Source of the DNA: a virus
Taxonomy: Duplodnaviria > Caudoviricetes
DNA length: 64,000 nt
IMG/VR virus record: IMGVR_UViG_3300033463_000027
Span: 75,525 to 139,524 of that record
Reading direction: 5' to 3' (one strand)
Positions 44,118-64,000 of this stretch are shown piece by piece; within the stretch, counting starts at the first letter, position 1, and each line of letters starts with the position of its first letter. A program made the translations under genes and the position numbers. The notes under the pieces are model-generated. The model saw only the letters and a program-made list of their open reading frames with translations. It was not told the DNA's origin and ran no database searches.

Positions 44118-45387
44118 TAATGGTCAGCGAAGATTCCCCACCCTCTAAGCGACAACGTAGGGCGGGGAGGAATCGCATAGAAAGGTGGTGAATAAATGTT
44201 TAGAGCGTATAAGATGAGGATATTTCCTACAGAAGAACAAAAGGTGCTTATTGTTAAGACTTTTGGTTGTTGTCGTTGGTATTGGAATCAGGCTTTACAT
44301 GACAATATAGAATACTACAAAGAGAATGGCAAAGGCAAAATTACTACTCCTGCAAAATATAAAACTGAGAACGAATGGCTTAAAGAAGTAGATTCTATGG
44401 CATTATGTAATACCCAAATGGATTTACAATCTGCTTTTTCCAAATTCTTTTCTCAACCAAAGACTGGATTCCCTAAGTATAAGTCTAAGAAAAGACCGAA
44501 GAATAGTTATAAGACAACAAGGTCAAAGGGATATGAAGTGACAGATGATTATATTAAGTTGCCAAAACTTAAAGAAGTCAAACTTGTTAATCATCGTCAT
44601 AAAACAGGAATTTGCAAATCAGCTACAATATCTCTTACTTCGTCTGGACAGTATTATGTATCTTGTCTGTTTAAAGAAGAAGTGGATTTATTACCCGCAA
44701 CTGATAAAGAAATAGGTGTGGATTTAGGTCTTGTTGATTTAGCAATATGTTCAGATGGAACTAAGTTTCCTGTACTACGATCATTGAGAAAAAATTTATC
44801 AAAATTAAAACGAGAACAACGAAAACTAAGTAAAATGGTTTATGGCAGTAATTGCTATCTAAAACAAAAACAAAGAGTAGCAAAACTACATGAGCATATA
44901 GCAAATCAGCGCAAGGATTATTTGCATAAAATAAGTCACAAACTCATAAACGAGAACCAAGTTGTGTGTTTGGAGGACTTAAACGTAAAAGGACTTCTGA
45001 AAAATCATCATTTAGCGTTATCAATATCTGATGTTGGTTGGTCTGAATTTGTATCTATGTTGCAATACAAAGCCGATTGGTATGGTAGAACAATACAGAA
45101 GATAGGCAGATTCTATTCAAGCAGTCAGATTTGCAGTTATTGTGGTTATAAATCAGGAAAGAAACCGTTGCATATTAGAGAATGGACTTGCCCTGAATGC
45201 GGAACACATCATGACCGAGATGTGAATGCAGCTAAAAACATACTGCAAGAAGGTAAAAGACTTTTGGCGGCAAGCACCTGCCGTAACAGGCAATTTATGC
45301 TCTCGGATAAGCTATCTCAGCCTAAAAATGAGATAGCGAAGCTGAATCGAGTTGCAAGCTCCGTCCTCTTAGGTTGGAGTGGTTGAC
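44118..45387 (+). mobile_element. non-autonomous IS200/IS605 (IS1341-like) TnpB element
   Basis: Left hairpin GATT-CCCCACCCT..AGGGCGGGG-AGGAAT; right end CAAG-hairpin-TTGAC; left boundary uncertain by a few bases. Confidence 0.85.
44196..45386 (+). CDS. tnpB: RNA-guided endonuclease TnpB
   Basis: HTH_OrfB N-terminus, [25 protein letters not shown] all intact. Confidence 0.95.
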
Positions 45388-51851: not shown

Positions 51852-52370
51852 TTGCAAATAGAAAGAACATGGGCAATGCCTAATGGTAATACTTTTACAA
51901 TAAAACCAATCAAAGAACTTGTTGAATCTGTTATAAGCTCTTTACATAATAGCGCGGTTATCGTTGACCCTTTTGCAAACAATTCTAAGTATGGCACCAT
52001 AACTAATGACTTAAATCCCGAATATGATACTACTTATCATCTTGACGCATTAAAATTCTTACAACAATTATGCTCTGATAGTGCAGATTTAATTCTTTAT
52101 GACCCGCCATACTCCATCACTCAGGCTGCTACGCTTTATAAATCCTATGGAAAAGAGAAGTTGGAAATTAATGTCGCCAATATGAAGTATTGGGCTGAGT
52201 GCAAAAAAGAAGTAGCAAGGATATGTAAAAGCTCTGGACAAGTTCTTTCTTTTGGTTGGAATACTAATGGAATAGGCAAGAATAGGGGATTTGAAATTGA
52301 AAAAATACTAATAGTAGCTCATGGTGGGTCTAAGAATGATACACTATGTACTTTGGAAAGGAAGTTATAA
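51852..52370 (+). CDS. amino (N6-adenine/N4-cytosine) DNA methyltransferase
   Basis: VDPFA and LYDPPYS motifs. Confidence 0.8.
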   Translation: MQIERTWAMPNGNTFTIKPIKELVESVISSLHNSAVIVDPFANNSKYGTITNDLNPEYDTTYHLDALKFLQQLCSDSADLILYDPPYSITQAATLYKSYGKEKLEINVANMKYWAECKKEVARICKSSGQVLSFGWNTNGIGKNRGFEIEKILIVAHGGSKNDTLCTLERKL

Positions 52371-53060
52371 ATGAATGTGTTGGTAGCCTGTGAAGAGTCA
52401 CAGCGCGTTTGTACCGCTTTCCGTAGGGGGGGGCATAATGCCTTTAGCTGTGATGTGATTGAACCAAGTGGAGAACACCCTGAGTGGCACATACTCGGTG
52501 ATGCTTTAGATGTTATAAATCCTAAACCTGATAAGATTTCATTCAGAACTATGGATAATAAGACTTACATAATTGATAAATGGGATTTAATAATTGCTCA
52601 CCCACCTTGTACTTATCTGTCCAATGCGGGGGCTTGTAGGTTATATCCCAAGAAAGGTCAGTTAAATCAAGAGCGATATACCAAAGGATTACAAGCCAAA
52701 GAGTTCTTTATGCAGTTCATTAATGCTAATTGCGAACACATTGCAGTTGAAAATCCAATACCTTCAAAGATATATAATTTACCTAAGTATACACAGATCA
52801 TACAACCCTATCAGTTTGGACACCCATACACTAAAAAGACCTGTCTCTGGTTAAAAGGATTGCCTAAGTTACAACCCACTAATGTAGTTGAACCACAAGG
52901 TATGTGGGTTAATGGCAACTCAAATATTTGGAAGAAGCAAGCTGCTGATGGTAATGTTACAGGCAAGTCCAAAGACCCTCGTGTTCGAGCCAAAACTTTT
53001 GATGGGATAGCAGAAGCTATGGCAAATCAATGGGGAAATTTGAACAAAACAATAATTTAG
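52371..53060 (+). CDS. C5-cytosine DNA methyltransferase-like protein (G8 tract, in frame)
   Basis: VLVACEES, AHPPCTYLS, VENP motifs. Confidence 0.8.
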   Translation: MNVLVACEESQRVCTAFRRGGHNAFSCDVIEPSGEHPEWHILGDALDVINPKPDKISFRTMDNKTYIIDKWDLIIAHPPCTYLSNAGACRLYPKKGQLNQERYTKGLQAKEFFMQFINANCEHIAVENPIPSKIYNLPKYTQIIQPYQFGHPYTKKTCLWLKGLPKLQPTNVVEPQGMWVNGNSNIWKKQAADGNVTGKSKDPRVRAKTFDGIAEAMANQWGNLNKTII

Positions 53061-53145
53061 CATACTATATATAGCGGTTATAAATACATATTAGAACCTA
53101 TATATAGGGGTACTTTTAAAGAAAGGTTTTATAAGGAGAATTAAA

Positions 53146-53832
53146 ATGGGATTATTTAGTAAGAAGAATGATATAGAAACTATTGAATTATCAAAGAAGA
53201 TCAGCCTTGCCAAAGACGAAGTTCACAAGGTCTGCTTAACTAAACCGATTCTGAATGGACTTAAAGCCAAGGTTTGTCTCGCCATAGACTATTCGGGGTC
53301 AATGTCTGACCTGTATGATAATGGCACCGTGCAGTCAATTTTCGAGAAAATGCTTCCGCTTGCAATGGAGTTTGATGATGACTGGACAATGGAAGCGTGG
53401 AAGTTCGACAATGGTACGAAACGCTTAAAAGATGTAACGCCACAGAACATTGCTAACTATGTAAAGAAGAATATTAATGGTTCAATGGGTGGCACAAACT
53501 ATGCACCTGTTATAAATGAGATTGTGGACTTCTATAAAAACTCTAAAGCCCCCGTGTATGTAATCTTTATTACTGACGGTGATAACTGGGATAAAGACGA
53601 TGCAACAACTGCAATTCAGGCAGCTTCAAAACTTCCGATTTTCTGGCAGTTTGTCGGACTTGGTAATAATGGATATTCATATTTACAAGACCTCGATGAC
53701 ATGACAGGGCGATACGTTGATAATGCTGATTTCTTCGAGGTACGAAACGCCAATGATATAACTTATTTCAATCTGCTCAATGAGTTTCCAAGTTGGTTGA
53801 GTAATGAAAAAGTTAAGGCTATGATTGTGTAA
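53146..53832 (+). CDS. vWA domain protein (TerF/tellurite-resistance-associated type)
   Basis: MIDAS DYSGS, GGTNY, FITDG, PIFWQFVG, DNADFF. Confidence 0.85.
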   Translation: MGLFSKKNDIETIELSKKISLAKDEVHKVCLTKPILNGLKAKVCLAIDYSGSMSDLYDNGTVQSIFEKMLPLAMEFDDDWTMEAWKFDNGTKRLKDVTPQNIANYVKKNINGSMGGTNYAPVINEIVDFYKNSKAPVYVIFITDGDNWDKDDATTAIQAASKLPIFWQFVGLGNNGYSYLQDLDDMTGRYVDNADFFEVRNANDITYFNLLNEFPSWLSNEKVKAMIV

Positions 53833-53852
53833 AGAAAGAAGGGGTAGCAATA

Positions 53853-54404
53853 ATGCCACTTAATAAAGGTTATCTAACAGCAAAACAAACTCCCGCATCT
53901 GATGAGTGCCTTACCCCTTTCTATTGTGTTGACCCTCTCCTTGAATTTCTTACAGACAAGAGCAAAATAATTTGGTGTCCTTTTGACAAAGAATATTCTG
54001 CGTTTGTTCAAGTCCTCACAGGGGGGGGGCTAACAGTAATCCATTCCCATATAGATGATGGTCAAGACTTCTTTGAGTATGAACCCAATCTATGGGACAT
54101 TATGATAAGCAATCCCCCATTCAGCAAGAAAGACAAGGTTCTTGAAAGAGCGTTTAGCTTTAACAAGCCCTTTGCACTTTTACTTCCTTGCAATAGTATT
54201 CAAGGCAAGTCAAGGTTTAAGATATTTAATAATGAAATACAAATGCTCTGTTTTGATTCGAGAGTCGGTTTCTTTATGAATGGCGATCTAAAAAATGTAA
54301 CTGAGGGAACTGCTTTCGGTTCTGCTTATTTTTGTAGAGATTTTTTGCCGAGTAAGTTGGAACTGAGAGAACTACATAAGTATGAAAGGACGTTGGTTGA
54401 ATGA
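53853..54404 (+). CDS. N6-adenine DNA methyltransferase (G9 tract, in frame)
   Basis: DECLTP, WCPFD, GQDFF, SNPPFS. Confidence 0.82.
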   Translation: MPLNKGYLTAKQTPASDECLTPFYCVDPLLEFLTDKSKIIWCPFDKEYSAFVQVLTGGGLTVIHSHIDDGQDFFEYEPNLWDIMISNPPFSKKDKVLERAFSFNKPFALLLPCNSIQGKSRFKIFNNEIQMLCFDSRVGFFMNGDLKNVTEGTAFGSAYFCRDFLPSKLELRELHKYERTLVE

Positions 54405-54586
54405 AACAAATACTAATTGTTTATGTATTGGGAACAGTTTTGATACAAATAGCTATGTCTATTGGTATTACTTACTGTGCTGTATATTTCAATTCTCCTA
54501 AATTACTTTGGTTTCTTTTGCTCCCTGTTATAATTTCACCAAGTATTAAAAAGACTACTGAAATTGATAAGGAAAGAAGTGATTGA
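54401..54586 (+). CDS. small membrane protein
   Basis: Two hydrophobic segments. Confidence 0.55.
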   Translation: MKQILIVYVLGTVLIQIAMSIGITYCAVYFNSPKLLWFLLLPVIISPSIKKTTEIDKERSD

Positions 54587-54589
54587 AAA

Positions 54590-55890
54590 TTGTCCAATAT
54601 AAGCACCTACATCTCAGACAAAGGTGTTCATAACAGTGAACGTTTAAAAGAACTGCAAACCTTGCCACTTGACCGCAAGATAGCAATAACACAGGCTCGT
54701 ATTATTGAGTGGTTTAACTTTTGGGAAGGTAACGTTTATGTTTCTTTCTCAGGTGGCAAAGATAGTACAGTCTTGCTTGATCTTGTAATTAAAACAATTA
54801 AGGCGATTGACCCAACGTTTGAAGTCCCTGTCGTGTTCAGCAACACGGGTCTTGAATACCCTGAAATTCAGAGGTTTGCCAAGAGCAAGGGTGCGACTTT
54901 TGTAACCCCTAAGATGAACATAGTTGAGGTTATTCGCAATTATGGTTATCCTCTTATCAGCAAGGAAGTGTCCAGTGCAATTTATTATGCAAGACGTATA
55001 AAGCCGTATGACAGCGGCGCAACCTGCGACACACACACCAGAACGAGGTTACAAGGAAACAACGTTCAAGCGACTGGAACTGCAAGACAAACGACCTCCG
55101 AACGGGCGCGAATGGGGGGGGCAAGACGAGTTCAGAACTGCCATCAGAAAGCGGAACGAATTGCTTGACCAACGCATCGATTCATGTAGTCCAAAAGGAT
55201 ATCAGGAGAAAGGAACTCATGGGGACTATGGGTAGCTCGGATTGCTCTACTAAATCAAAGTTTAACAAGAAGAAATGGCTACCACTCGCACAAGAACTTC
55301 CTGCGTTAATATCTCATAAGTGCTGTGACGTTATGAAAAAATCACCAATAGGAATATATCAAAGGGCTACACATAATAAACCTTATCTTGGTACTATGGC
55401 AGAAGAAAGTATTATGCGTAGACAAGCATGGATAAGAACAGGTTGTAATGCTTTTGAGGGAAAGAAACCGAGTAGTCAACCGCTTAGTTTTTGGACTGAA
55501 CAAGATATCTTGGAGTACATCAGAACGTATCAGATTGAGATTTGTTCTGTGTATGGGGATATTGTTGAGGAAGATGGAGTGTTGTGTACTACTGGTGTAA
55601 GTAGGTCAGGCTGTGTAGGCTGCCCTTATGGGAGCCAATATGAAAAGGGTATAACACGTTTTCAGAGACTTGCCGAAACTCACCCCAAACAGTACAAGTT
55701 CTGTATAGAGGGTGGCGAATGGGCTGATAATCCTTACTATGATCCTAACGCACCTGAGTACGATGGCGAATGGAAAAACTGGAATCCTAAAAAGATTTGG
55801 ACAGTAGGCAATGGTGGCTTGGGTATGGGTTATCTCTTTGATATGGTTAATGAGATTTATGGAAAAGAATTAATAAGGTATAAGGTGTGA
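54590..55890 (+). CDS. PAPS-reductase-family (PP-loop) protein, out of frame across (AC)5 and G8 tracts
   Basis: SFSGGKDS and NTGLEYPE in first frame; CCDVMKK, PLSFWT, RSGCVGC in second frame. Confidence 0.85.
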
Positions 55891-55896
55891 TAAATA

Positions 55897-56097
55897 ATGA
55901 ACAACAATAAAAACAACAATAACAAAACTACTGTATCGGGCGGTATAGGATTTGGAGGACTTCTTACAATTGCCTTTATTATACTAAAGCTCTGTGGAGT
56001 GATTAAGTGGTCGTGGCTTTGGGTGCTTGCTCCCACTTGGATTCCGATAGCTTTGGTAATAATCGTACTTTTGATTATTATAACTGTTAAGAAGTGA
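55897..56097 (+). CDS. small transmembrane phage protein
   Basis: GGIGFGGLLTIAFIILKLCGVIKWSWLWVLAP. Confidence 0.75.
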   Translation: MNNNKNNNNKTTVSGGIGFGGLLTIAFIILKLCGVIKWSWLWVLAPTWIPIALVIIVLLIIITVKK

Positions 56098-56116
56098 TAC
56101 ATAAGAGGAAGAAAAA

Positions 56117-56650
56117 ATGAGTGATTTTAGTACACAAATCAAAACAAGTGTTAATGGTGACGAATACTTCTCGCCCCCCCCTGTGGTCGAGATGATAATA
56201 CCGCTATTACAACAAAATAACATTCAGAGAGTTTGGTGTCCATTTGATAAACCTGACAGCAACTTTGTGACAATGCTTACAGACAAGGGTTTTGAGGTTA
56301 CTTATGGACACATTGAAACTGGACAGGACTTCTTTGATTATGAAGCCCCACCTGATAATGTACAATGCGCAGTAAGTAACCCGCCCTTTAGTAAACGTAA
56401 TGCGATATTTAAGAGACTGTTTGAGTTTAATATTCCTTTTGCTTTGGTTATGAACCTTAACGGTTTGTTTGATAGCAAAGAGCGTTTTGAGATGTTCAAG
56501 CACCAAGACATAGAACTTTACATACCAAAAGGTCGAATGAAGTTTGTAGCAAAAGATAAGGGTCAGCTCAATTCACCGAATTTTCAGAGTGTTTATGTAT
56601 GCAGTAAAATGTTAAACAATCCGATTACATTTGCGGATTGGGAGTTTTAA
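56117..56650 (+). CDS. N6-adenine DNA methyltransferase (C8 tract, in frame), paralog of 53853
   Basis: DEYFSP, WCPFD, GQDFF, SNPPFS. Confidence 0.82.
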   Translation: MSDFSTQIKTSVNGDEYFSPPPVVEMIIPLLQQNNIQRVWCPFDKPDSNFVTMLTDKGFEVTYGHIETGQDFFDYEAPPDNVQCAVSNPPFSKRNAIFKRLFEFNIPFALVMNLNGLFDSKERFEMFKHQDIELYIPKGRMKFVAKDKGQLNSPNFQSVYVCSKMLNNPITFADWEF

Positions 56651-56672
56651 GGAAAAGAATAAAAGGTAGGCG

Positions 56673-57596
56673 ATGTATTTGACAAAAGATTTAACAGGAC
56701 AACGGTTTGGATTTCTTACTGTTATCAGACGTATAGAAAATTATGTTACCAAACAAGGGAAACAACTTTCACAATGGGAGTGCTTATGTGATTGCGGAAA
56801 TTATACAACAGCATATACTGCCTTATTAACAACAGGTCATAAAAAATCTTGTGGTTGTCAAAAACATGGTAAAGAACCTATTGACTTAACAAATCAAAGG
56901 TTTGGCAAATTAACTGTCATTGAACGAGTAGGGACAAGAAACGGCAGTCCTTTATGGAAATGTAAATGTGATTGTGGTAATGAAATTGAAACAATTACAC
57001 AGAGATTGCGTAACGGAGAAGCTAAATCTTGTGGATGCTACATAAGGGATTGGATATCACAAAGAAATCGCAAGTATAATAAATATGAAATAAAAGATAA
57101 TTACGTCATAGGTTATACAGAAAATGGAGAAAAGTTTTTTGTTGACATAGATGACTTAGAAAAAATAAAACCATATTATTGGAAAGTAAGTAGTAGTGGT
57201 TATATTATCGCTTGGGACAAAGAAATAAAAACCAATATTCATTTGCATAGGTTAATAATGAATTGCAATGATGAAAATTTAGTAGTAGATCATATTGGTG
57301 GCTCAAAAACAATTAACGATAATAGGAAGAGAAATTTAAGGATTGTATCACAAGCTCAAAATCAAATGAACGCAAAACGATATAAGAATAACACATCGGG
57401 GCATACTGGCGTTCGTTTTGATAAGCGTTCAGGAAAATGGCTTGCTACAATTAATTTTAATTATAAAAATTATTGGTTGGGATTGTATGAAAATTACAAC
57501 GATGCAGTTAAAGCCAGAGAAAAAGCAGAAGATGAATATTTTGGCGAATATGGATATAGAAATAGTCAAAAACAAATTCAACAATATGCTGATTAA
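56673..57596 (+). CDS. HNH-AP2 homing endonuclease
   Basis: Two DLT.QRFG.LTV..CDCG..SCGC repeats, LHRLIM..VDHI..DNRKRNLR, NTSGHTGV AP2 domain. Confidence 0.88.
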   Translation: MYLTKDLTGQRFGFLTVIRRIENYVTKQGKQLSQWECLCDCGNYTTAYTALLTTGHKKSCGCQKHGKEPIDLTNQRFGKLTVIERVGTRNGSPLWKCKCDCGNEIETITQRLRNGEAKSCGCYIRDWISQRNRKYNKYEIKDNYVIGYTENGEKFFVDIDDLEKIKPYYWKVSSSGYIIAWDKEIKTNIHLHRLIMNCNDENLVVDHIGGSKTINDNRKRNLRIVSQAQNQMNAKRYKNNTSGHTGVRFDKRSGKWLATINFNYKNYWLGLYENYNDAVKAREKAEDEYFGEYGYRNSQKQIQQYAD

Positions 57597-57608
57597 GGAG
57601 TGATTTCT

Positions 57609-57887
57609 ATGAAAGCAAGAATCCCCAATAATGAGTATGATCCCAATACAATCGGTGTACCTAAGAAACTCATTGAGGACAAACAGTATGCCAAAGAGTT
57701 TTGGGAGTACCTTACTCAGTCTAATCCCGAAAGCGACTATGGTGAGTTCGAGGATTGGTATAACAAGCTCTGTGTACTTGACTTCAAGCAAAAGTTATAC
57801 AACACTCCGCTACCTAATAGGGCAAGTCGCAGAGCAAGGAAGGCTGAAATGAGAAAGGCTGAAAAGTCTGAGAAAGGAGGTGATTGA
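57609..57887 (+). CDS. hypothetical protein
   Basis: AAGGAG RBS; C-terminal NRASRR motif. Confidence 0.6.
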   Translation: MKARIPNNEYDPNTIGVPKKLIEDKQYAKEFWEYLTQSNPESDYGEFEDWYNKLCVLDFKQKLYNTPLPNRASRRARKAEMRKAEKSEKGGD

Positions 57888-57889
57888 TT

Positions 57890-58312
57890 ATGAGTGTAGT
57901 TGATAATACGAGTCCACCTAATGACAGACCGCCGATTGCACCAAACGTAGTTCCTCGGCATAAATCCTACTACAACAAAATGATTTATGTCGCAGGAGCT
58001 TATGGTGGAAGTGAAACAAACAAGACCTATATTGAAATGTGCTGTCGCAGATTCAGCGAAGATTACCCTACATACTGTTTTATAAATGGTGTTTCAGAGT
58101 TCTCTCACTGGTATAATAAGTCAAATTCTATCGTAGATGACCTAAAAAGATGCGCTTTTTTGCTAAAAAAGTCTGATGAAATCTGGGTTTTATCGGGTAC
58201 AGATTGGGAGAGTTCGCAAGGTACAATGGTAGAAATTTTCGTAGCTATGGAGAATGATATTCCTGTGGTTTACGATAAGGACAAACAGCTTTCAATAAAG
58301 AAAGAGAAGTGA
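57890..58312 (+). CDS. nucleoside 2-deoxyribosyltransferase-like (DUF4406/DUF1937) protein
   Basis: IYVAGAY and DEIWVL..WESSQG..E motifs. Confidence 0.7.
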   Translation: MSVVDNTSPPNDRPPIAPNVVPRHKSYYNKMIYVAGAYGGSETNKTYIEMCCRRFSEDYPTYCFINGVSEFSHWYNKSNSIVDDLKRCAFLLKKSDEIWVLSGTDWESSQGTMVEIFVAMENDIPVVYDKDKQLSIKKEK

Positions 58313-58441
58313 TCTGAATATGAGCGCATTGATAATTCTTGGTATAGGTTTTATCGGCGGCGGGGTGGTAGGTATTGTTATTGCTTACTTATGCAATCGT
58401 TCAGAAGATTATGATGGAGAAGATGATAAGGGGGAATGGTA

Positions 58442-58645
58442 ATGGACGTAGTATTTTACTCTACGGGTTGCCCGAAGTGCAAAGTTTTAAAAGCAAAGCT
58501 TGACTCTAAGGGTATTGACTATACAGTATTTAATGACATTGACAGAATGGTAGAAATGGGAATGACGACTGTCCCTAATCTTATGGTTGATGGTAAGCTG
58601 ATGAATTTTAAGGAAAGTATGGAATGGCTTAACAGCATAGATTGA
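58442..58645 (+). CDS. glutaredoxin/NrdH-like redoxin
   Basis: CPKC and TVP.L.VDG. Confidence 0.88.
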   Translation: MDVVFYSTGCPKCKVLKAKLDSKGIDYTVFNDIDRMVEMGMTTVPNLMVDGKLMNFKESMEWLNSID

Positions 58646-58656
58646 GGTGGTTGATT

Positions 58657-60525
58657 GTGTATTCTGAAAAATACGAAGTATATAGGAAGTATGTTGACTT
58701 TATAAATGGTTACAGGCTTGCAAGCAACGCGGCGACTGGTAGTAAGGTAGATTCTAATGCGAATGTTGAACATAAAAACATTACTACTTGTGCGGGAGAG
58801 TTGGTAAAGAAGATAAAGATAGGTGTCAATAGACTTCTCATGATTGATAAGCTGACTAATATGTACGGTTACGATGTTGCAGAGGAATATATTAGACAAA
58901 TAGAAGCTCATGAGAAATATAAACATGATGAAACAAGTATATACCCTTATTGTGTATCTATCACTATGTACCCCTTCTTGACCGGTGGTTTATCTGATAT
59001 TGGAGGAATATCTTCTGCGCCAACTAATCTCGAATCATTTGCGGGTTCGTTTATAAATCTTGTATTTGCTATTGCAGCTCAGTTTGCAGGGGCAGTTTCA
59101 ACCCCTGAATTTCTTTTGTACATGGATTACTTTATCCGTAAAGATTATGGAGATAATTACATAGAACATCTCGATCAGTATGTTACAACCGATTTTGTTA
59201 TAAGGAAAAGAACACTTAAACAAGCTATTGAGGATAAATTTCAACAAGTAGTTTATTCTTTAAATCAGCCAGCGGCAGCAAGAGATTATCAGTCGGTCTT
59301 TTGGAACATAGCCTACTTTGACCGAAACTATTTCAATGGTTTGTTCGAAGATTTCCTTTTTCCCGATGGTACAGAACCGTGTTGGAAAACACTCAACTGG
59401 TTGCAGAAAAATTTCATGAAGTGGTTTAATAAAGAACGCCTTTCCAAAGTTCTTACATTTCCTGTTGAAACAGTCAATCTTCTTGATAACGGAACATCTT
59501 ATGTTGATAAAGAATGGGAAGATTTTACCGCTGAAATGTACGCGGAAGGTCATTCATTTTTTACTTATAGAAGTAATAGCGTAGATTCATTAAGTTCGTG
59601 CTGTAGACTCCGCAATGAAGTCTCTGAAAACACCTTCTCGTTCACTCTTGGTGCGGGTGGCGTTTCAACGGGTTCAAAGGGTGTTATTACCACAAATGTT
59701 AATAGACTTGTGCAGAACGCAGTACGTAATGGTGAAGATATCTCGGAAGTTATGCGCCGCGAAACTCTAAAGAATCATAAGTATCTTATGGCTTTCAACG
59801 AGATTGTCAAAGATAGCTTTAATGCAAAAATGCTTTCAGTATATGATGCGGGATTTATTGAATTGTCCAAACAATATCTTACACAAGGTATCAATGGATT
59901 TGTTGAGGGGGCAGAGTTTTTGGGTATTGACATTTCTCCCAACGAAGAATATTTTAAGTATGGTGAAATGATACTGAAACCCATCTATGAGGAAAACAAG
60001 AAAGCTAAAACAAAGGAACTCATGTTTAATACAGAGTTTGTTCCTGCCGAGAACCTCGGTGTTAAGAACGCTAAATGGGATAAAGAAGATGGGTATGTAG
60101 TTCCGAGAGATTGCTATAACAGTTATTTCTTTGTAGTAGAGGACGAACATTGTAATATCATTGATAAGCTCATTCTTCATGGCGAAAGATTAACCAAGTA
60201 TCTCGATGGTGGTTCTGCGCTCCATATTGGTTTAGATGAACATTTAACTAAAGAACAATATAAACAGTTATTAAGAAATGCTATCAAGACAGGTTGTTCT
60301 TATCTTACTATTAACGTACCCAATACAATTTGTAACGACTGTGGATTTATCAGTAAGCATAGATTATTGAAGTGTCCTAAGTGCAGAAGTGTAAATCTTG
60401 ATTATCTGACAAGAATTATCGGTTATCTTAAAAGGATTTCTTCGTTCTCCGAAGCCCGTCAAGTTGAAGCTGCAAAGAGATATTACATCAAGAAAGAAGA
60501 TGTGAGCCAATGTCTCAAAGGTTAA
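58657..60525 (+). CDS. nrdD: anaerobic (class III) ribonucleoside-triphosphate reductase
   Basis: PYCV, SSCCRL, PAENL, CNDC..CPKC, glycyl-radical loop TRIIGYL; no ATP cone. Confidence 0.95.
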   Translation: MYSEKYEVYRKYVDFINGYRLASNAATGSKVDSNANVEHKNITTCAGELVKKIKIGVNRLLMIDKLTNMYGYDVAEEYIRQIEAHEKYKHDETSIYPYCVSITMYPFLTGGLSDIGGISSAPTNLESFAGSFINLVFAIAAQFAGAVSTPEFLLYMDYFIRKDYGDNYIEHLDQYVTTDFVIRKRTLKQAIEDKFQQVVYSLNQPAAARDYQSVFWNIAYFDRNYFNGLFEDFLFPDGTEPCWKTLNWLQKNFMKWFNKERLSKVLTFPVETVNLLDNGTSYVDKEWEDFTAEMYAEGHSFFTYRSNSVDSLSSCCRLRNEVSENTFSFTLGAGGVSTGSKGVITTNVNRLVQNAVRNGEDISEVMRRETLKNHKYLMAFNEIVKDSFNAKMLSVYDAGFIELSKQYLTQGINGFVEGAEFLGIDISPNEEYFKYGEMILKPIYEENKKAKTKELMFNTEFVPAENLGVKNAKWDKEDGYVVPRDCYNSYFFVVEDEHCNIIDKLILHGERLTKYLDGGSALHIGLDEHLTKEQYKQLLRNAIKTGCSYLTINVPNTICNDCGFISKHRLLKCPKCRSVNLDYLTRIIGYLKRISSFSEARQVEAAKRYYIKKEDVSQCLKG

Positions 60526-60986
60526 AGTATTTAGGGTATAGTATAGTATTTCAAGAAGTTCCCAATGAAACATCTTTGGCTATAAATATTAGTGGTTGCC
60601 CTCACCATTGTGAGGGTTGCCACAGTAAATATTTATGGGAATACAAAGGAAACTATATATCAGACGATATCGAATCCTTGATTGAACAATACGAAGGCTA
60701 CATTACTTGTGTTTGTTTTATGGGCGGCGATCAAAACTTGAAAGAGTTAAATGAATTATGTCTTACTGTTCATGATTATGATTTAAAGAGTTGCCTTTAT
60801 TCAGGAAGTAATACATTAAAATTGAATGAAGTGCCATTTTTTGACTATGTTAAAACAGGAAGTTACCAACAAGAACGAGGTGGACTTAATTCAAATAATA
60901 CTAATCAGAAAATGTATAGACGAGAACCAAATAGTTTCCACTATACGGATATTACCCATTATTTTCAAACCGCACAGAAAGGATAG
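60510..60986 (+). CDS. nrdG: anaerobic RNR activase (radical SAM)
   Basis: CPHHCEGC, FMGGD, KTGSY, TNQK. Confidence 0.93.
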   Translation: MSQRLKYLGYSIVFQEVPNETSLAINISGCPHHCEGCHSKYLWEYKGNYISDDIESLIEQYEGYITCVCFMGGDQNLKELNELCLTVHDYDLKSCLYSGSNTLKLNEVPFFDYVKTGSYQQERGGLNSNNTNQKMYRREPNSFHYTDITHYFQTAQKG

Positions 60987-60991
60987 GTTGA

Positions 60992-61201
60992 ATGAGTAAA
61001 CTAAAGATAATTAAAAATCCCGATGAAGAGATTGTAAATGAAATTAAAATCAAGTTAAAAGAGACATTGGGTAATTGCCCATGTGTCCTTCCACCTTTTT
61101 GGAATAAAGATACCAAGTGTCCATGCAAAAAATTCCGTGAGCAAGATTACGAGGGCGAATGTTGTTGTGGTTTATACATTAAGGTGAAAGCCGATGAATA
61201 A
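60992..61201 (+). CDS. ferredoxin-thioredoxin reductase catalytic-subunit-like protein
   Basis: CPC..CPC..CCCGLY (CHC-variant) pattern. Confidence 0.8.
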   Translation: MSKLKIIKNPDEEIVNEIKIKLKETLGNCPCVLPPFWNKDTKCPCKKFREQDYEGECCCGLYIKVKADE

Positions 61202-62357
61202 ATGGAAGAACGCCGCAATACCCGCCATACTTCTTCATATTTGTATAGGTTCGGTTTATAGCTTTTCATTATTTGCTAAACCGATTTCAGAATATATCGG
61301 AAAGTCTCAATCGCTTGTACAGTTTGCTTTTTCACTTGCGATTTTCTTCTTAGGAATGTCCGCAGCGTTCGGTGGAGCTTTCGTAGAGAGAAACATACAC
61401 AGATCATCTTTGTTAAGTACGGTATGCTTTTGTGGGGGGCTTGCGCTCACTGCATTAGCTGTACACCTTAAATCGTTACCCTTACTTTACATTGGATATG
61501 GGTTTGTTGGTGGTGTTGGACTTGGCTTAGGTTATCTTAGTCCAGTTAAAACACTTATGCTATGGTTTAAAGACAATAAAGGTCTTGCAACAGGAATTTC
61601 AGTTTGTGCATTTGGTTTTGCTTCAACAGTAGCTTCGCCAATAATTACATTTCTTTTAAATAGAGTATCAATCTCAACAACGTTTTTGATTCTTGCAGGA
61701 CTTTATTTTATTCCTATGATGATAGGACACTTTTTGTTGCAGAAGCCAAAAGACTGGATAGAACCAAAATCAAATGCTGATTTTAAAGCGATCACTATGT
61801 TAAAAGACAAGAAGTTTATAGCCATGTGGTTATTCTTCTTCTTGAATATAACTTGTGGTCTTGCACTAATTCCGATAGCAAGTCCCATGCTTACAGAGCT
61901 TAATGTTAAGCCAACATTGATTGCTCTTGTAGTAAGTATTATGGGAATATTCAATGGCGCAGGAAGATTAGTATTCAGTGCTGTATCTGACAAGCTAAAG
62001 AAAAGAGTGTATATATATTACTTGATTTTCTGTATTTCAATAATTACTGCAATCTTATCTATAATTTCGCACAACTTTTCAATGATAGCTTTAATACTGA
62101 TTTCAGCGACTTATGGCGCGGGGTTCTCATGTATCGCACCTCTGTTGGCTGATTGTTATGGCATGAAGAATATAAGCAAACAGCATGGGTTAATTCTTTC
62201 TGCGTGGGCTTGCGCTGGATTGTGCGGCAATCAACTTGCAATGTTTATTCAGCGCAACACAGGTTCTTACATGAACGTGTTCAAGGTAACTGCGGTTCTG
62301 TACCTTATAGCTCTTGCAGTGGCTTTTATCAACCTCAACAAGACCAAGACAAACTAA
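61194..62357 (+). CDS. MFS transporter, oxalate/formate antiporter (OFA) family
   Basis: About 12 hydrophobic segments; IGSVYSFSLF, WFKDNKGLATG, FNGAGRL..SD motifs. Confidence 0.85.
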   Translation: MNKWKNAAIPAILLHICIGSVYSFSLFAKPISEYIGKSQSLVQFAFSLAIFFLGMSAAFGGAFVERNIHRSSLLSTVCFCGGLALTALAVHLKSLPLLYIGYGFVGGVGLGLGYLSPVKTLMLWFKDNKGLATGISVCAFGFASTVASPIITFLLNRVSISTTFLILAGLYFIPMMIGHFLLQKPKDWIEPKSNADFKAITMLKDKKFIAMWLFFFLNITCGLALIPIASPMLTELNVKPTLIALVVSIMGIFNGAGRLVFSAVSDKLKKRVYIYYLIFCISIITAILSIISHNFSMIALILISATYGAGFSCIAPLLADCYGMKNISKQHGLILSAWACAGLCGNQLAMFIQRNTGSYMNVFKVTAVLYLIALAVAFINLNKTKTN

Positions 62358-62432
62358 TCAAATTGAATAATCACCGCCCAACACTATTCGTTGGGTGTGT
62401 GGTTATTATAAAAGGAGTGATACATCTTGTCA

Positions 62433-62840
62433 ATGATTCCAATACTTTTACTTATTATAACACTATTGCTTTTGCTACTTTTGGTTTCAGTATTGATTTA
62501 CGGTTTAGTTACAACACCATCTACCATTCCTTTAAAGGTTTTATTTGTTGCAGTATCGTTATTCTGTTTTGCCGTTTGTATGAATTTAATTACCACTCAA
62601 CTCATTGCAAGAAACCAAGTACAGCCAATAGAAGTAGTTAAAAAGGTAGATTTAACTTACAACCCCGATTATCCCAATTACATAATTATTTTCAGACTCA
62701 CCGAGGACAAGCTGGGGCGTAACCAATTATACAAAGCTGAAATAAACAATCATTCAGCAAGGAATTATTCGGAGGGTGAGACATATTATAAAACGCTTTA
62801 TGATATGTTTAAGTTTTCGGATATTAGAAAAATAATATAG
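62433..62840 (+). CDS. membrane protein
   Basis: Two N-terminal TM helices, AAGGAG RBS. Confidence 0.6.
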   Translation: MIPILLLIITLLLLLLLVSVLIYGLVTTPSTIPLKVLFVAVSLFCFAVCMNLITTQLIARNQVQPIEVVKKVDLTYNPDYPNYIIIFRLTEDKLGRNQLYKAEINNHSARNYSEGETYYKTLYDMFKFSDIRKII

Positions 62841-62866
62841 TAGTAGTGGGTGGGTAGGCAAATACA

Positions 62867-63217
62867 ATGAAAAATATATGCAAATCCAAAGTAGCCAAAG
62901 CATATCATAGGCATCACAATATAAATCGGTATTGGCTTTTAGTTTCTGTACTACTAATAATCGTAGGAACAATAGTAGCTATGGAGATTGGTGTGCTTTA
63001 CGAAGAAAAGGTTATAAGTGATATACAATTAGCTGCGATCATAGTTGGTATAGCGTTCATTTGCTTTGCTGTTATGATTATAATTGGCTCGTACAATGAG
63101 TTATATTTAGAGGAAGATTTAATCGACTTTGATAGATTTGCAAAAAAGTACAATCTTATCAAAGGACAACGTGAATACAAGCGTAGAGAAAGGAAGAATA
63201 AAAAATGGCTGATGTAA
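62867..63217 (+). CDS. membrane protein
   Basis: Two TM helices. Confidence 0.6.
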   Translation: MKNICKSKVAKAYHRHHNINRYWLLVSVLLIIVGTIVAMEIGVLYEEKVISDIQLAAIIVGIAFICFAVMIIIGSYNELYLEEDLIDFDRFAKKYNLIKGQREYKRRERKNKKWLM

Positions 63218-63651
63218 AAGCATTAACTGACTTTGAAAAGTTCAAAGAGCTATTCAAGGAAATTGGTTGTGAATATATCATTCATCTTTTTCCTGATTGT
63301 ATTTATATTGATATTGATCCAATATTAGCAGATGGTAATTTAAGTGTGGAATTTGACAGACAAGGTAAGTTTAAGAGATTTGTGACGGAGTAAAAAAAAA
63401 TGAGCGAGATGAGAACAGAATTTATAAAACAAACGCAAATGCAAAAGCAAAGAGTAGAGTTCGGATTTGATGCGCCAATTGATTGGACACCGGGGAAAGG
63501 TGCTTGTTGGATTGATTGTCCTTTTTCGGTATGTACTTCTTTTGGACATAGGTGTAAAGCGTTAGTTGATAATCAGTGTCCTTTTACGGAGAATGTAGAA
63601 ACATTTTATTACGATGACACAACAGATATAGAGGATAAAATGTAATTAGAG

Positions 63652-63870
63652 GTGGCTAATATAAATTTCTACGAGATACATCCTTGTCCCAAATGCAAGG
63701 GTAATGGTAAAGCAAGATTAGTAGGCGATCTGAAAGATGGTTACATTATAGAGTGTAACGACTGCGGCTACATTGCGGCAAACTATAATGAAGCTCGTTT
63801 CACTCTTTTGGGAGCAATCAGATTATGGAATAAGAAATGTAAGTTAAGTAAGGAGCGTGATTCCAATTAA
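63652..63870 (+). CDS. Lar-like zinc-finger protein
   Basis: PCPKC..ECNDC..AIRLWN. Confidence 0.65.
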   Translation: MANINFYEIHPCPKCKGNGKARLVGDLKDGYIIECNDCGYIAANYNEARFTLLGAIRLWNKKCKLSKERDSN

Positions 63871-64000
63871 GTACATGGGTTCAAAGAGCAGGATAGCAAA
63901 ATACATAGTTCCTATTTTGCAAAAAGAGATAGACGATAACAATATTAAAACATACCTCGAACCATTTGTGGGGGGGGGGGGGGGGCAAATTTAATAGAAA
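63857..64000 (+). CDS. Dam-family adenine methyltransferase, 5' part, out of frame at a G16 tract
   Basis: KYMGSKSRIAK..YLEPFVGG; after G16 the frame stops at 63992 while the expected ANLIE lies in another frame. Confidence 0.85.

Follow-up and report, generated by a model that had tools for sequence, protein, structure and literature searches.

Phase-variable Type III mod and Type I hsdS DNA methyltransferases (MTases) underlie the phasevarions of Haemophilus, Neisseria, Helicobacter and Moraxella, in which slipped-strand mispairing at long simple-sequence tracts switches mod genes on and off; in the strict sense, a phasevarion is the regulon controlled by such a phase-variable MTase. Among phages, agt and rIIA of the T-even group are already known as contingency loci. 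Methylation shields DNA against classical restriction and exposes it to methylation-dependent Type IV enzymes. Here we describe the last 64 kb (positions 75,525-139,524, hereafter "the window") of the 139,524-bp rumen phage record IMGVR_UViG_3300033463_000027, whose completeness is estimated by CheckV at 97%. Five long G/C homopolymers and a dinucleotide repeat, (AC)n, lie in its DNA-modification genes, and we consider it probable that these repeats are replication-slippage contingency loci that give the phage a combinatorial methylome.

The polyG tracts of Campylobacter Fletchervirus phages, the subject of Sorensen et al. 2021 (Cell Rep 35:109214), are said to be hypermutable and to yield phenotypically mixed progeny. 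The rumen phage resembles them in carrying length-variable polyG tracts in its genes, whereas the Fletchervirus tracts, judging by title and citations, sit in receptor-binding genes and bear on host recognition and evasion of resistance, and those described here sit in DNA-modification genes; G8-G10 tracts also occur in a tail-fibre gene of some more distant relatives. In phage T2, Gomez, Barrick and Waters reported that an A-tract in agt is a contingency locus at which one-base changes switch the gene off and on at high frequency, letting progeny escape either the modification-dependent TgvAB or the modification-sensitive McrBC (10.1101/2025.10.21.683753). The two phages have in common a mononucleotide repeat in a DNA-modification gene. 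The T2 repeat, however, is an A9 tract in a glucosyltransferase gene of an AT-rich lytic coliphage, where such runs occur in all gene classes, and its switching has been tested experimentally; the runs here are of G/C, compositionally unexpected, confined to modification genes, spread over five loci (four MTases of three families plus a PP-loop enzyme) and known from sequence alone.

Bacterial phasevarions offer a further parallel, with simple-sequence repeats in the 5′ part of MTase genes switching methylation ON or OFF. There, the enzymes are components of cellular restriction-modification systems that control a regulon; here, they are orphan phage-encoded MTases, several of which would be switched independently. 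They are small (172-263 amino acids, aa), stand-alone and Type II-like (phrog_757, phrog_799, PF02086), and there is no res or hsdR partner in the modification cluster. An earlier note on this DNA had proposed a candidate phage phasevarion, and of that name the confinement of switch-prone tracts to modification genes can be kept, while the enzymes belong to neither the Type III mod nor the Type I hsdS class. A literature search of open-access papers and preprints found no publication on repeat-switched phage-encoded MTases. Phage contingency loci and repeat-switched bacterial MTases are each already known; what is notable here, in our view, is the occurrence of five loci, three MTase families and a two-repeat cassette.

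Long G/C runs are confined to DNA-modification genes

Enumeration of homopolymers reproduced exactly the list of tracts in the earlier note (Table 1), with no further G/C run of at least 8 in the window; even at a threshold of at least 7, the five runs are the only ones in the 64 kb. Nor does the whole 139,524-bp genome hold any G/C run of at least 8 outside the five sites, so that the claimed confinement of the tracts to modification genes extends over the other 134 kb. Next in length genome-wide come a single C7, at genome position 20530, and three G/C runs of 6, among them the G6 at 61434, and the counts of G runs by length (19 of length 5, 1 of 6, 0 of 7, 2 of 8, 2 of 9 and 1 of 16) drop towards 7 and then jump. 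A first-order Markov model predicts 0.35 G/C runs of at least 8 in the genome, against the five sites observed (Poisson P ~3e-5). All five lie within seven modification genes that together occupy ~5.1 kb, or 3.7% of the genome, a placement with a probability of ~7e-8 by chance. The seven genes are those for a C5-cytosine-type MTase, two N6/N4-type MTases (N6a and N6b), a PAPS-reductase-like protein, a Dam-type MTase and two MTases without a tract. As for simple repeats other than homopolymers, the genome carries only the (AC)5 of the PAPS-like gene and one (AT)5, the sole dinucleotide repeats of 5 or more units.

Base composition was ruled out as the cause of the runs: at 38-42% G+C, the tract genes differ little from the genome as a whole (37%). 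The possibility that the tracts merely encode conserved Gly-Gly or Pro-Pro pairs was likewise ruled out, by homologues that use mixed codons. At the tract position of the C5 MTase, ~80 homologues (43-61% identity) encode FR[KRE][KRL]GH in mixed codons and without a run, and the tract places Gly where these proteins have a K, R or L residue. The codons for VGGAN in three Dam homologues (L087-L089) are gta gga ggg gcg, gtt ggc ggt gca and tgc ggt gga gct, where the ON form of the window gene would use gtg ggg ggg gca. GGG is the rarest Gly codon of the phage, at 13% of Gly codons.

The paralogues N6a and N6b share the SNPPFS motif and carry their tracts at different positions: at the N6a tract, TGGGL in N6a corresponds to TDKGF in N6b, and at the N6b tract, SPPPVV in N6b corresponds to TPFYCV in N6a, which has no tract there. 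Because the sites differ and each counterpart is tract-free, the two genes must have gained their tracts independently. Taken together, the rarity of GGG, the mixed codons of homologues and the different tract sites of the paralogues argue that the tracts are made at the nucleotide level and not imposed by the protein.

For G/C repeats, we took about 7-8 units or more as the length enough for slippage, and the G8, G9, G8, C8 and G9/G16 runs, as well as (AC)5, lie inside open reading frames (ORFs) at sufficient length. The frame states given in the earlier note were also borne out: the reading frame is intact for the C5 MTase, N6a and N6b (ON, full-length as sequenced), the PAPS-like gene is split and Dam is out of frame (both OFF, truncated).

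Table 1 Modification genes, repeats and associated features. Positions are those of the window unless marked as record positions; ON and OFF give the state as sequenced.
Feature	Position	Strand	Evidence and state
Further DNA MTase, 172 aa, without tract, same modification cluster	51852..52370	+	phrog_11619, E=2.5e-44
C5-cytosine-type DNA MTase, 229 aa	52371..53060	+	phrog_757, E=2e-54; ON
G8 tract, C5 MTase codons 19-21 (cgt AGG GGG GGG cat)	52426..52433	+	enumeration
N6/N4-type DNA MTase N6a, 183 aa, SNPPFS motif	53853..54404	+	phrog_799, E=1.5e-31; ON
G9 tract, N6a codons 57-59 (aca GGG GGG GGG cta)	54021..54029	+	enumeration
PAPS-reductase-like gene (PP-loop ATPase superfamily)	54590..55890	+	PF01507 in both halves, phrog_424; OFF
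Linker open in all three frames, spanning both PAPS-like repeats	55012..55165	+	G+C 55% vs genome 37%
(AC)5 dinucleotide repeat in PAPS-like gene	55029..55038	+	enumeration
G8 tract in PAPS-like gene	55114..55121	+	enumeration
N6/N4-type DNA MTase N6b, 177 aa, paralogue of N6a	56117..56650	+	phrog_799, E=1.3e-26; ON
C8 tract, N6b codons 20-22 (tcg CCC CCC CCt)	56174..56181	+	enumeration
5′ end of Dam (D12-class) adenine MTase gene, continuing at record start 1-765	63857..64000	+	PF02086 at both record ends; OFF
G16 tract in Dam VGGA motif, at contig end	63970..63985	+	enumeration
PF01555 MTase, without tract	758-1549 (record)		PF01555

Repeat length predicts reading frame across relatives

Close relatives of the phage come from cattle and sheep rumen metagenomes and were found only by exact-protein look-ups; all sequence data are short-read metagenome assemblies, with tract lengths read at consensus level. 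Relative L169 traces to ERR2200540, and L171 and L172 to ERZ914856 and ERZ27280237. Megablast of the region against GenBank phages gave no match, and IMG/VR relatives reached through the C5 MTase (at most 61% amino-acid identity) or NrdD (at most 74%) are too distant and do not share the tract genes. In the close relatives, the tract genes are 82-95% identical in nucleotides to those of the window, with the exception of Dam of L167 (68%). Four of the five tracts are held in place at differing lengths, and the C5 tract was found in one relative, L166, where it is again G8 and ON. Over the window and relatives together, the lengths range across G6-G10 for N6a, C7-C8 for N6b, G7-G9 for Dam and G7-G9 with (AC)5-16 for the PAPS-like gene. 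Every ON or OFF state seen agrees with the one expected from the total repeat length modulo 3.

The contigs L171 and L172 are 99.9% identical over 13 kb, with one G in the PAPS-like tract as their sole indel and no other difference within the last 12.8 kb. The gene is ON in L171 (G7+G8, 441 aa) and OFF in L172 (G7+G7, 200+223 aa). At N6a, L166 has G8 and is ON, whereas L163-L165 (G10), L169 (G7) and L171/L172 (G6) are OFF, the OFF alleles of L163 and L169 being otherwise intact. N6b is ON with C8 in L167 and OFF with C7 in L169, and Dam is ON with G8 in L167 (263 aa) and OFF with G7 in L169. Changes in repeat number thus exchange full-length for truncated products in the window and its relatives. 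The earlier note had held that invariance of the tracts among relatives would speak against switching; what we observe is variation and frame toggling at four of the five sites, and (AC)n varies as well. The comparison with homologues that it suggested gave tract-free, mixed codons in distant homologues and tracts retained in close relatives.

The same pattern recurs in a collection of 15 billion proteins from many metagenomes, clustered at 90% identity. The N6a cluster holds members of 182-183 aa together with many of 59-67 aa, and the short forms end in ...GGA*, ...GGGA* or ...GGGHESYSFSY*; these endings fall at the tract and correspond to its two alternative frames. The N6b cluster holds members of 177 aa and forms of 164, 165 and 176 aa in which RPPVV or RPPPVV marks the entry from a different frame, and the variants ..TSRPPVVEM and ..TSRPPPVVEM imply tracts of C6 and C9. 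The adjacent vWA gene, used as a control, shows no such truncations except for short forms on ~1 kb contigs.

A two-repeat cassette in the PAPS-like gene

In the window, the PAPS-like gene is split into ORFs of 192 aa (54590-55168) and 241 aa (55165-55890). Its two repeats lie ~75 nucleotides (nt) apart within a linker of 145-197 nt in which none of the three frames has a stop codon, a feature found in the window and in all five relatives examined. Because the linker is open in three frames, a frame change at either repeat could be offset at the other, with no stop codon in the way. The combinations seen include (AC)5+G8 in the window (OFF), (AC)10+G8 in L166 (ON, 428 aa), (AC)9+G9 in L169 (OFF) and (AC)16+G8 in L167 (OFF). 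Four distinct full-length PAPS-like sequences were found, among them the 428-441-aa forms of L166 and L171.

Just upstream of the PAPS-like gene, L169 carries an adenylosuccinate-synthetase homologue (L169:7817-9097, PF00709, 426 aa), which may be a PurZ-type enzyme for 2-aminoadenine DNA. In relatives (L167:2669-3613, L167:7606-10247 and L173:10661-13751), a GIY-YIG gene interrupts the PAPS-like gene, and NrdD is divided into two parts, which in L173 are separated by an HNH gene. Both kinds of interruption look like mobile introns or homing-endonuclease insertions.

The C5 MTase and Dam genes

The gene at 52371-53060 fits a C5 cytosine MTase by its motifs and predicted fold. Its PPC and ENP motifs, corresponding to motifs IV and VI, are invariant across 19 homologues, and an AlphaFold2 model with a predicted local distance difference test (pLDDT) score of 84 matches M.HaeIII, DNMT3 and M.HhaI with a Foldseek probability of 1.0. 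The Pfam match is weak (PF00145, E=0.009) and motif I is atypical. Searches of PDB sequences with the C5 MTase, its family profile and N6a returned no useful match, and NCBIfam gave no match for the three tract MTases searched.

Three relatives (L169:2700-4100, L163:8100-9100 and L171:1-900) carry the C-terminal region of a C5 MTase, whose motifs recall target-recognition and C-terminal blocks, and 4-5 poly-G tracts (G7-G10) cut this region into ORFs of 57-96 aa; the tract lengths vary among relatives and might choose which recognition module is in frame. Tracts also occur in PF01555 N4/N6 MTases of relatives (L163:1331, L171:13600, L172:13010 and L166:13444), as G12 or G9 right after the start codon or as an internal G8, and members of the corresponding protein cluster range from 197 to 272 aa.

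The last 147 nt of the record (window 63853-64000) match its first 139 nt at 95% identity. Since the ends overlap by ~140 nt, the record closes on itself with Dam spanning the junction, and the genome, which IMG/VR classes as linear, is accordingly circular or terminally redundant. The two copies of the Dam tract differ, being G16 at the record's 3′ end but G9 at its 5′ end; both are out of frame, and with G8 the frame would be open and encode a complete D12-class enzyme with a DPPY motif. The assembly break falls exactly at this poly-G tract, which we count in favour of switching. The G16 run lies 15 nt from the record end, and those 15 nt hold two mismatches to the other copy. Given the contig end, the two mismatches and the G9 of the other copy, the exact length of 16 is unreliable, reflecting either an artefact of the contig end or a minor variant; of the out-of-frame G16 in Dam that the earlier note had listed, the tract and its frame therefore hold good and the precise length does not. 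The disagreement of G9 and G16 at the overlapping ends is the one hint of mixed lengths within a single population.

Switching as the best explanation

Under the reading we favour, the repeats would gain and lose units by slipped-strand mispairing during replication of phage or prophage DNA. Each unit change would shift the frame of one modification gene, which would toggle heritably and reversibly, its product being full-length when ON and truncated when OFF, and five independent switches could yield up to 32 modification states among the progeny. Within one population, switching would be frequent and reversible, with the methylome changing to match. The benefit may lie in hedging between hosts with restriction enzymes that a given methylation blocks and hosts with Type IV enzymes that target it; alternatively, switching may avoid a cost of the MTases.

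Phage MTases tend to be regarded as a fixed set of anti-restriction tools. Were each switched at random, a single phage genotype would become a mixture of epigenetic types, which would explain how broad or shifting host ranges are kept up against classical as well as methylation-dependent restriction, why MTase genes of phages frequently appear "broken" in assembled metagenomes, and why assemblies break at such tracts. It would also broaden the idea of the phage contingency locus to include methylation and to take in uncultured phages of the rumen and gut. More tentatively, large rumen phages may include a lineage in which a dedicated, multi-locus "stochastic methylome generator" has evolved, with independent G/C and AC repeats in modification genes only; as a counter-defence in gut ecosystems, it would be general and not described before. 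The two-repeat, three-frame-open cassette of the PAPS-like gene would be part of such a generator, as would the multi-tract C5 MTases of relatives, which possibly select a recognition module, and one burst would release progeny with dozens of modification patterns.

Several observations weigh against switching as the explanation. The C5 tract is G8 in both genomes that carry it, and length variation is seen at the other four sites only. The contigs L163, L164 and L165, apparent re-assemblies of one sample, give identical lengths, so the tract is not wildly unstable at consensus level. The part of the PAPS-like enzyme in DNA modification is suggested by gene neighbourhood alone. A search of GTDB species genomes with the vWA protein revealed no host or integrated copy (no match above 45% identity); the host is probably a rumen Bacillota species. 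Finally, N6a of L171/L172 combines its G6 tract with a second frameshift and may be decaying, which implies that some OFF states turn permanent.

Such decay is what relaxed selection would produce more widely, if the MTases were dispensable, slippery runs arose and frameshifted neutrally, and the differences among relatives marked decaying pseudogenes. The truncation of most listed N6a cluster members and the great differences in MTase gene content between relatives would also fit. We nevertheless judge this explanation unlikely. Tracts of at least 8 require several coordinated rare-codon or non-synonymous changes; their sites differ between the two paralogues, and at least five genes have gained one, against none elsewhere in 134 kb; and they are retained across lineages that are 5-18% divergent in nucleotides. 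Moreover, the N6a OFF alleles noted above are otherwise intact, and the open linker of the PAPS-like gene is kept in all relatives examined.

It is also conceivable that the phage is temperate and that the switchable MTases of the lysogen methylate the host chromosome, randomly altering host expression instead of, or besides, protecting phage DNA. The MTases sit within a replication and nucleotide-metabolism module beside NrdDG, of a kind usually expressed in lytic growth, and the GTDB search found neither host nor integrated copy; these points make a prophage phasevarion very unlikely, even though the genome encodes two or three tyrosine integrases and PamA, a prophage Dam-like MTase of S. 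aureus, alters host gene expression (reviewed in PMC13076061). Highly improbable is an artefact of sequencing or assembly, in which homopolymer miscalls would produce the frameshifts and contig differences: short-read metagenome assemblies are the sole data, and the contig-end G16 has a mismatched flank and disagrees with the G9 at the other end, but the presence of the tracts themselves cannot be an artefact, the ENA (ERZ27257207) and IMG assemblies of the phage give identical gene calls (which speaks against the concern in the earlier note that the frameshifts are sequencing errors), the lengths span 5 units, are accompanied by (AC)5-16 differences and co-vary with lineage-specific flank substitutions, and the vWA control gene shows no frameshift truncations.

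Tracts in other phages and neighbouring genes

In 2.6 Mb of other uncultured-phage loci, G/C runs of at least 8 are rare (19 in total), and several of them lie in modification or host-range genes. A complete 113-kb relative has a single such run, a G8 in a phrog_67 MTase; a phrog_111 MTase carries G9 in one case and G13 in another, and a C5 MTase homologue from these loci carries C8. In an unrelated uncultured phage, a queuine tRNA-ribosyltransferase/DpdA-like gene (phrog_887), again a DNA-modification gene, has a G9 tract 43 nt from its start (L009:4475). The more distant relatives with tail-fibre tracts (NrdD 66% identical) have G10, G9 and G8 at one site near the 5′ end of that gene (phrog_4492; L151:18334, L152:18549 and L153:18332, respectively), and all three also carry an invariant G9 in a 177-aa ORF of no assigned function.

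Elsewhere in the window, an A9 run at 63392-63400 spans the stop codon of the ORF at 63205-63393 and the start codon of the one at 63400-63645 (gagTAAAAAAAAATGagc). An IS605 OrfB/TnpB-type gene (PF01385, PF07282, 396 aa) probably lies at ~44196-45386, in the early region, as judged from the gene calls of the ENA copy. Adjoining NrdDG is a gene for a major facilitator superfamily (MFS) transporter of 387 aa (61194-62357), an unusual phage cargo that is kept in relatives.

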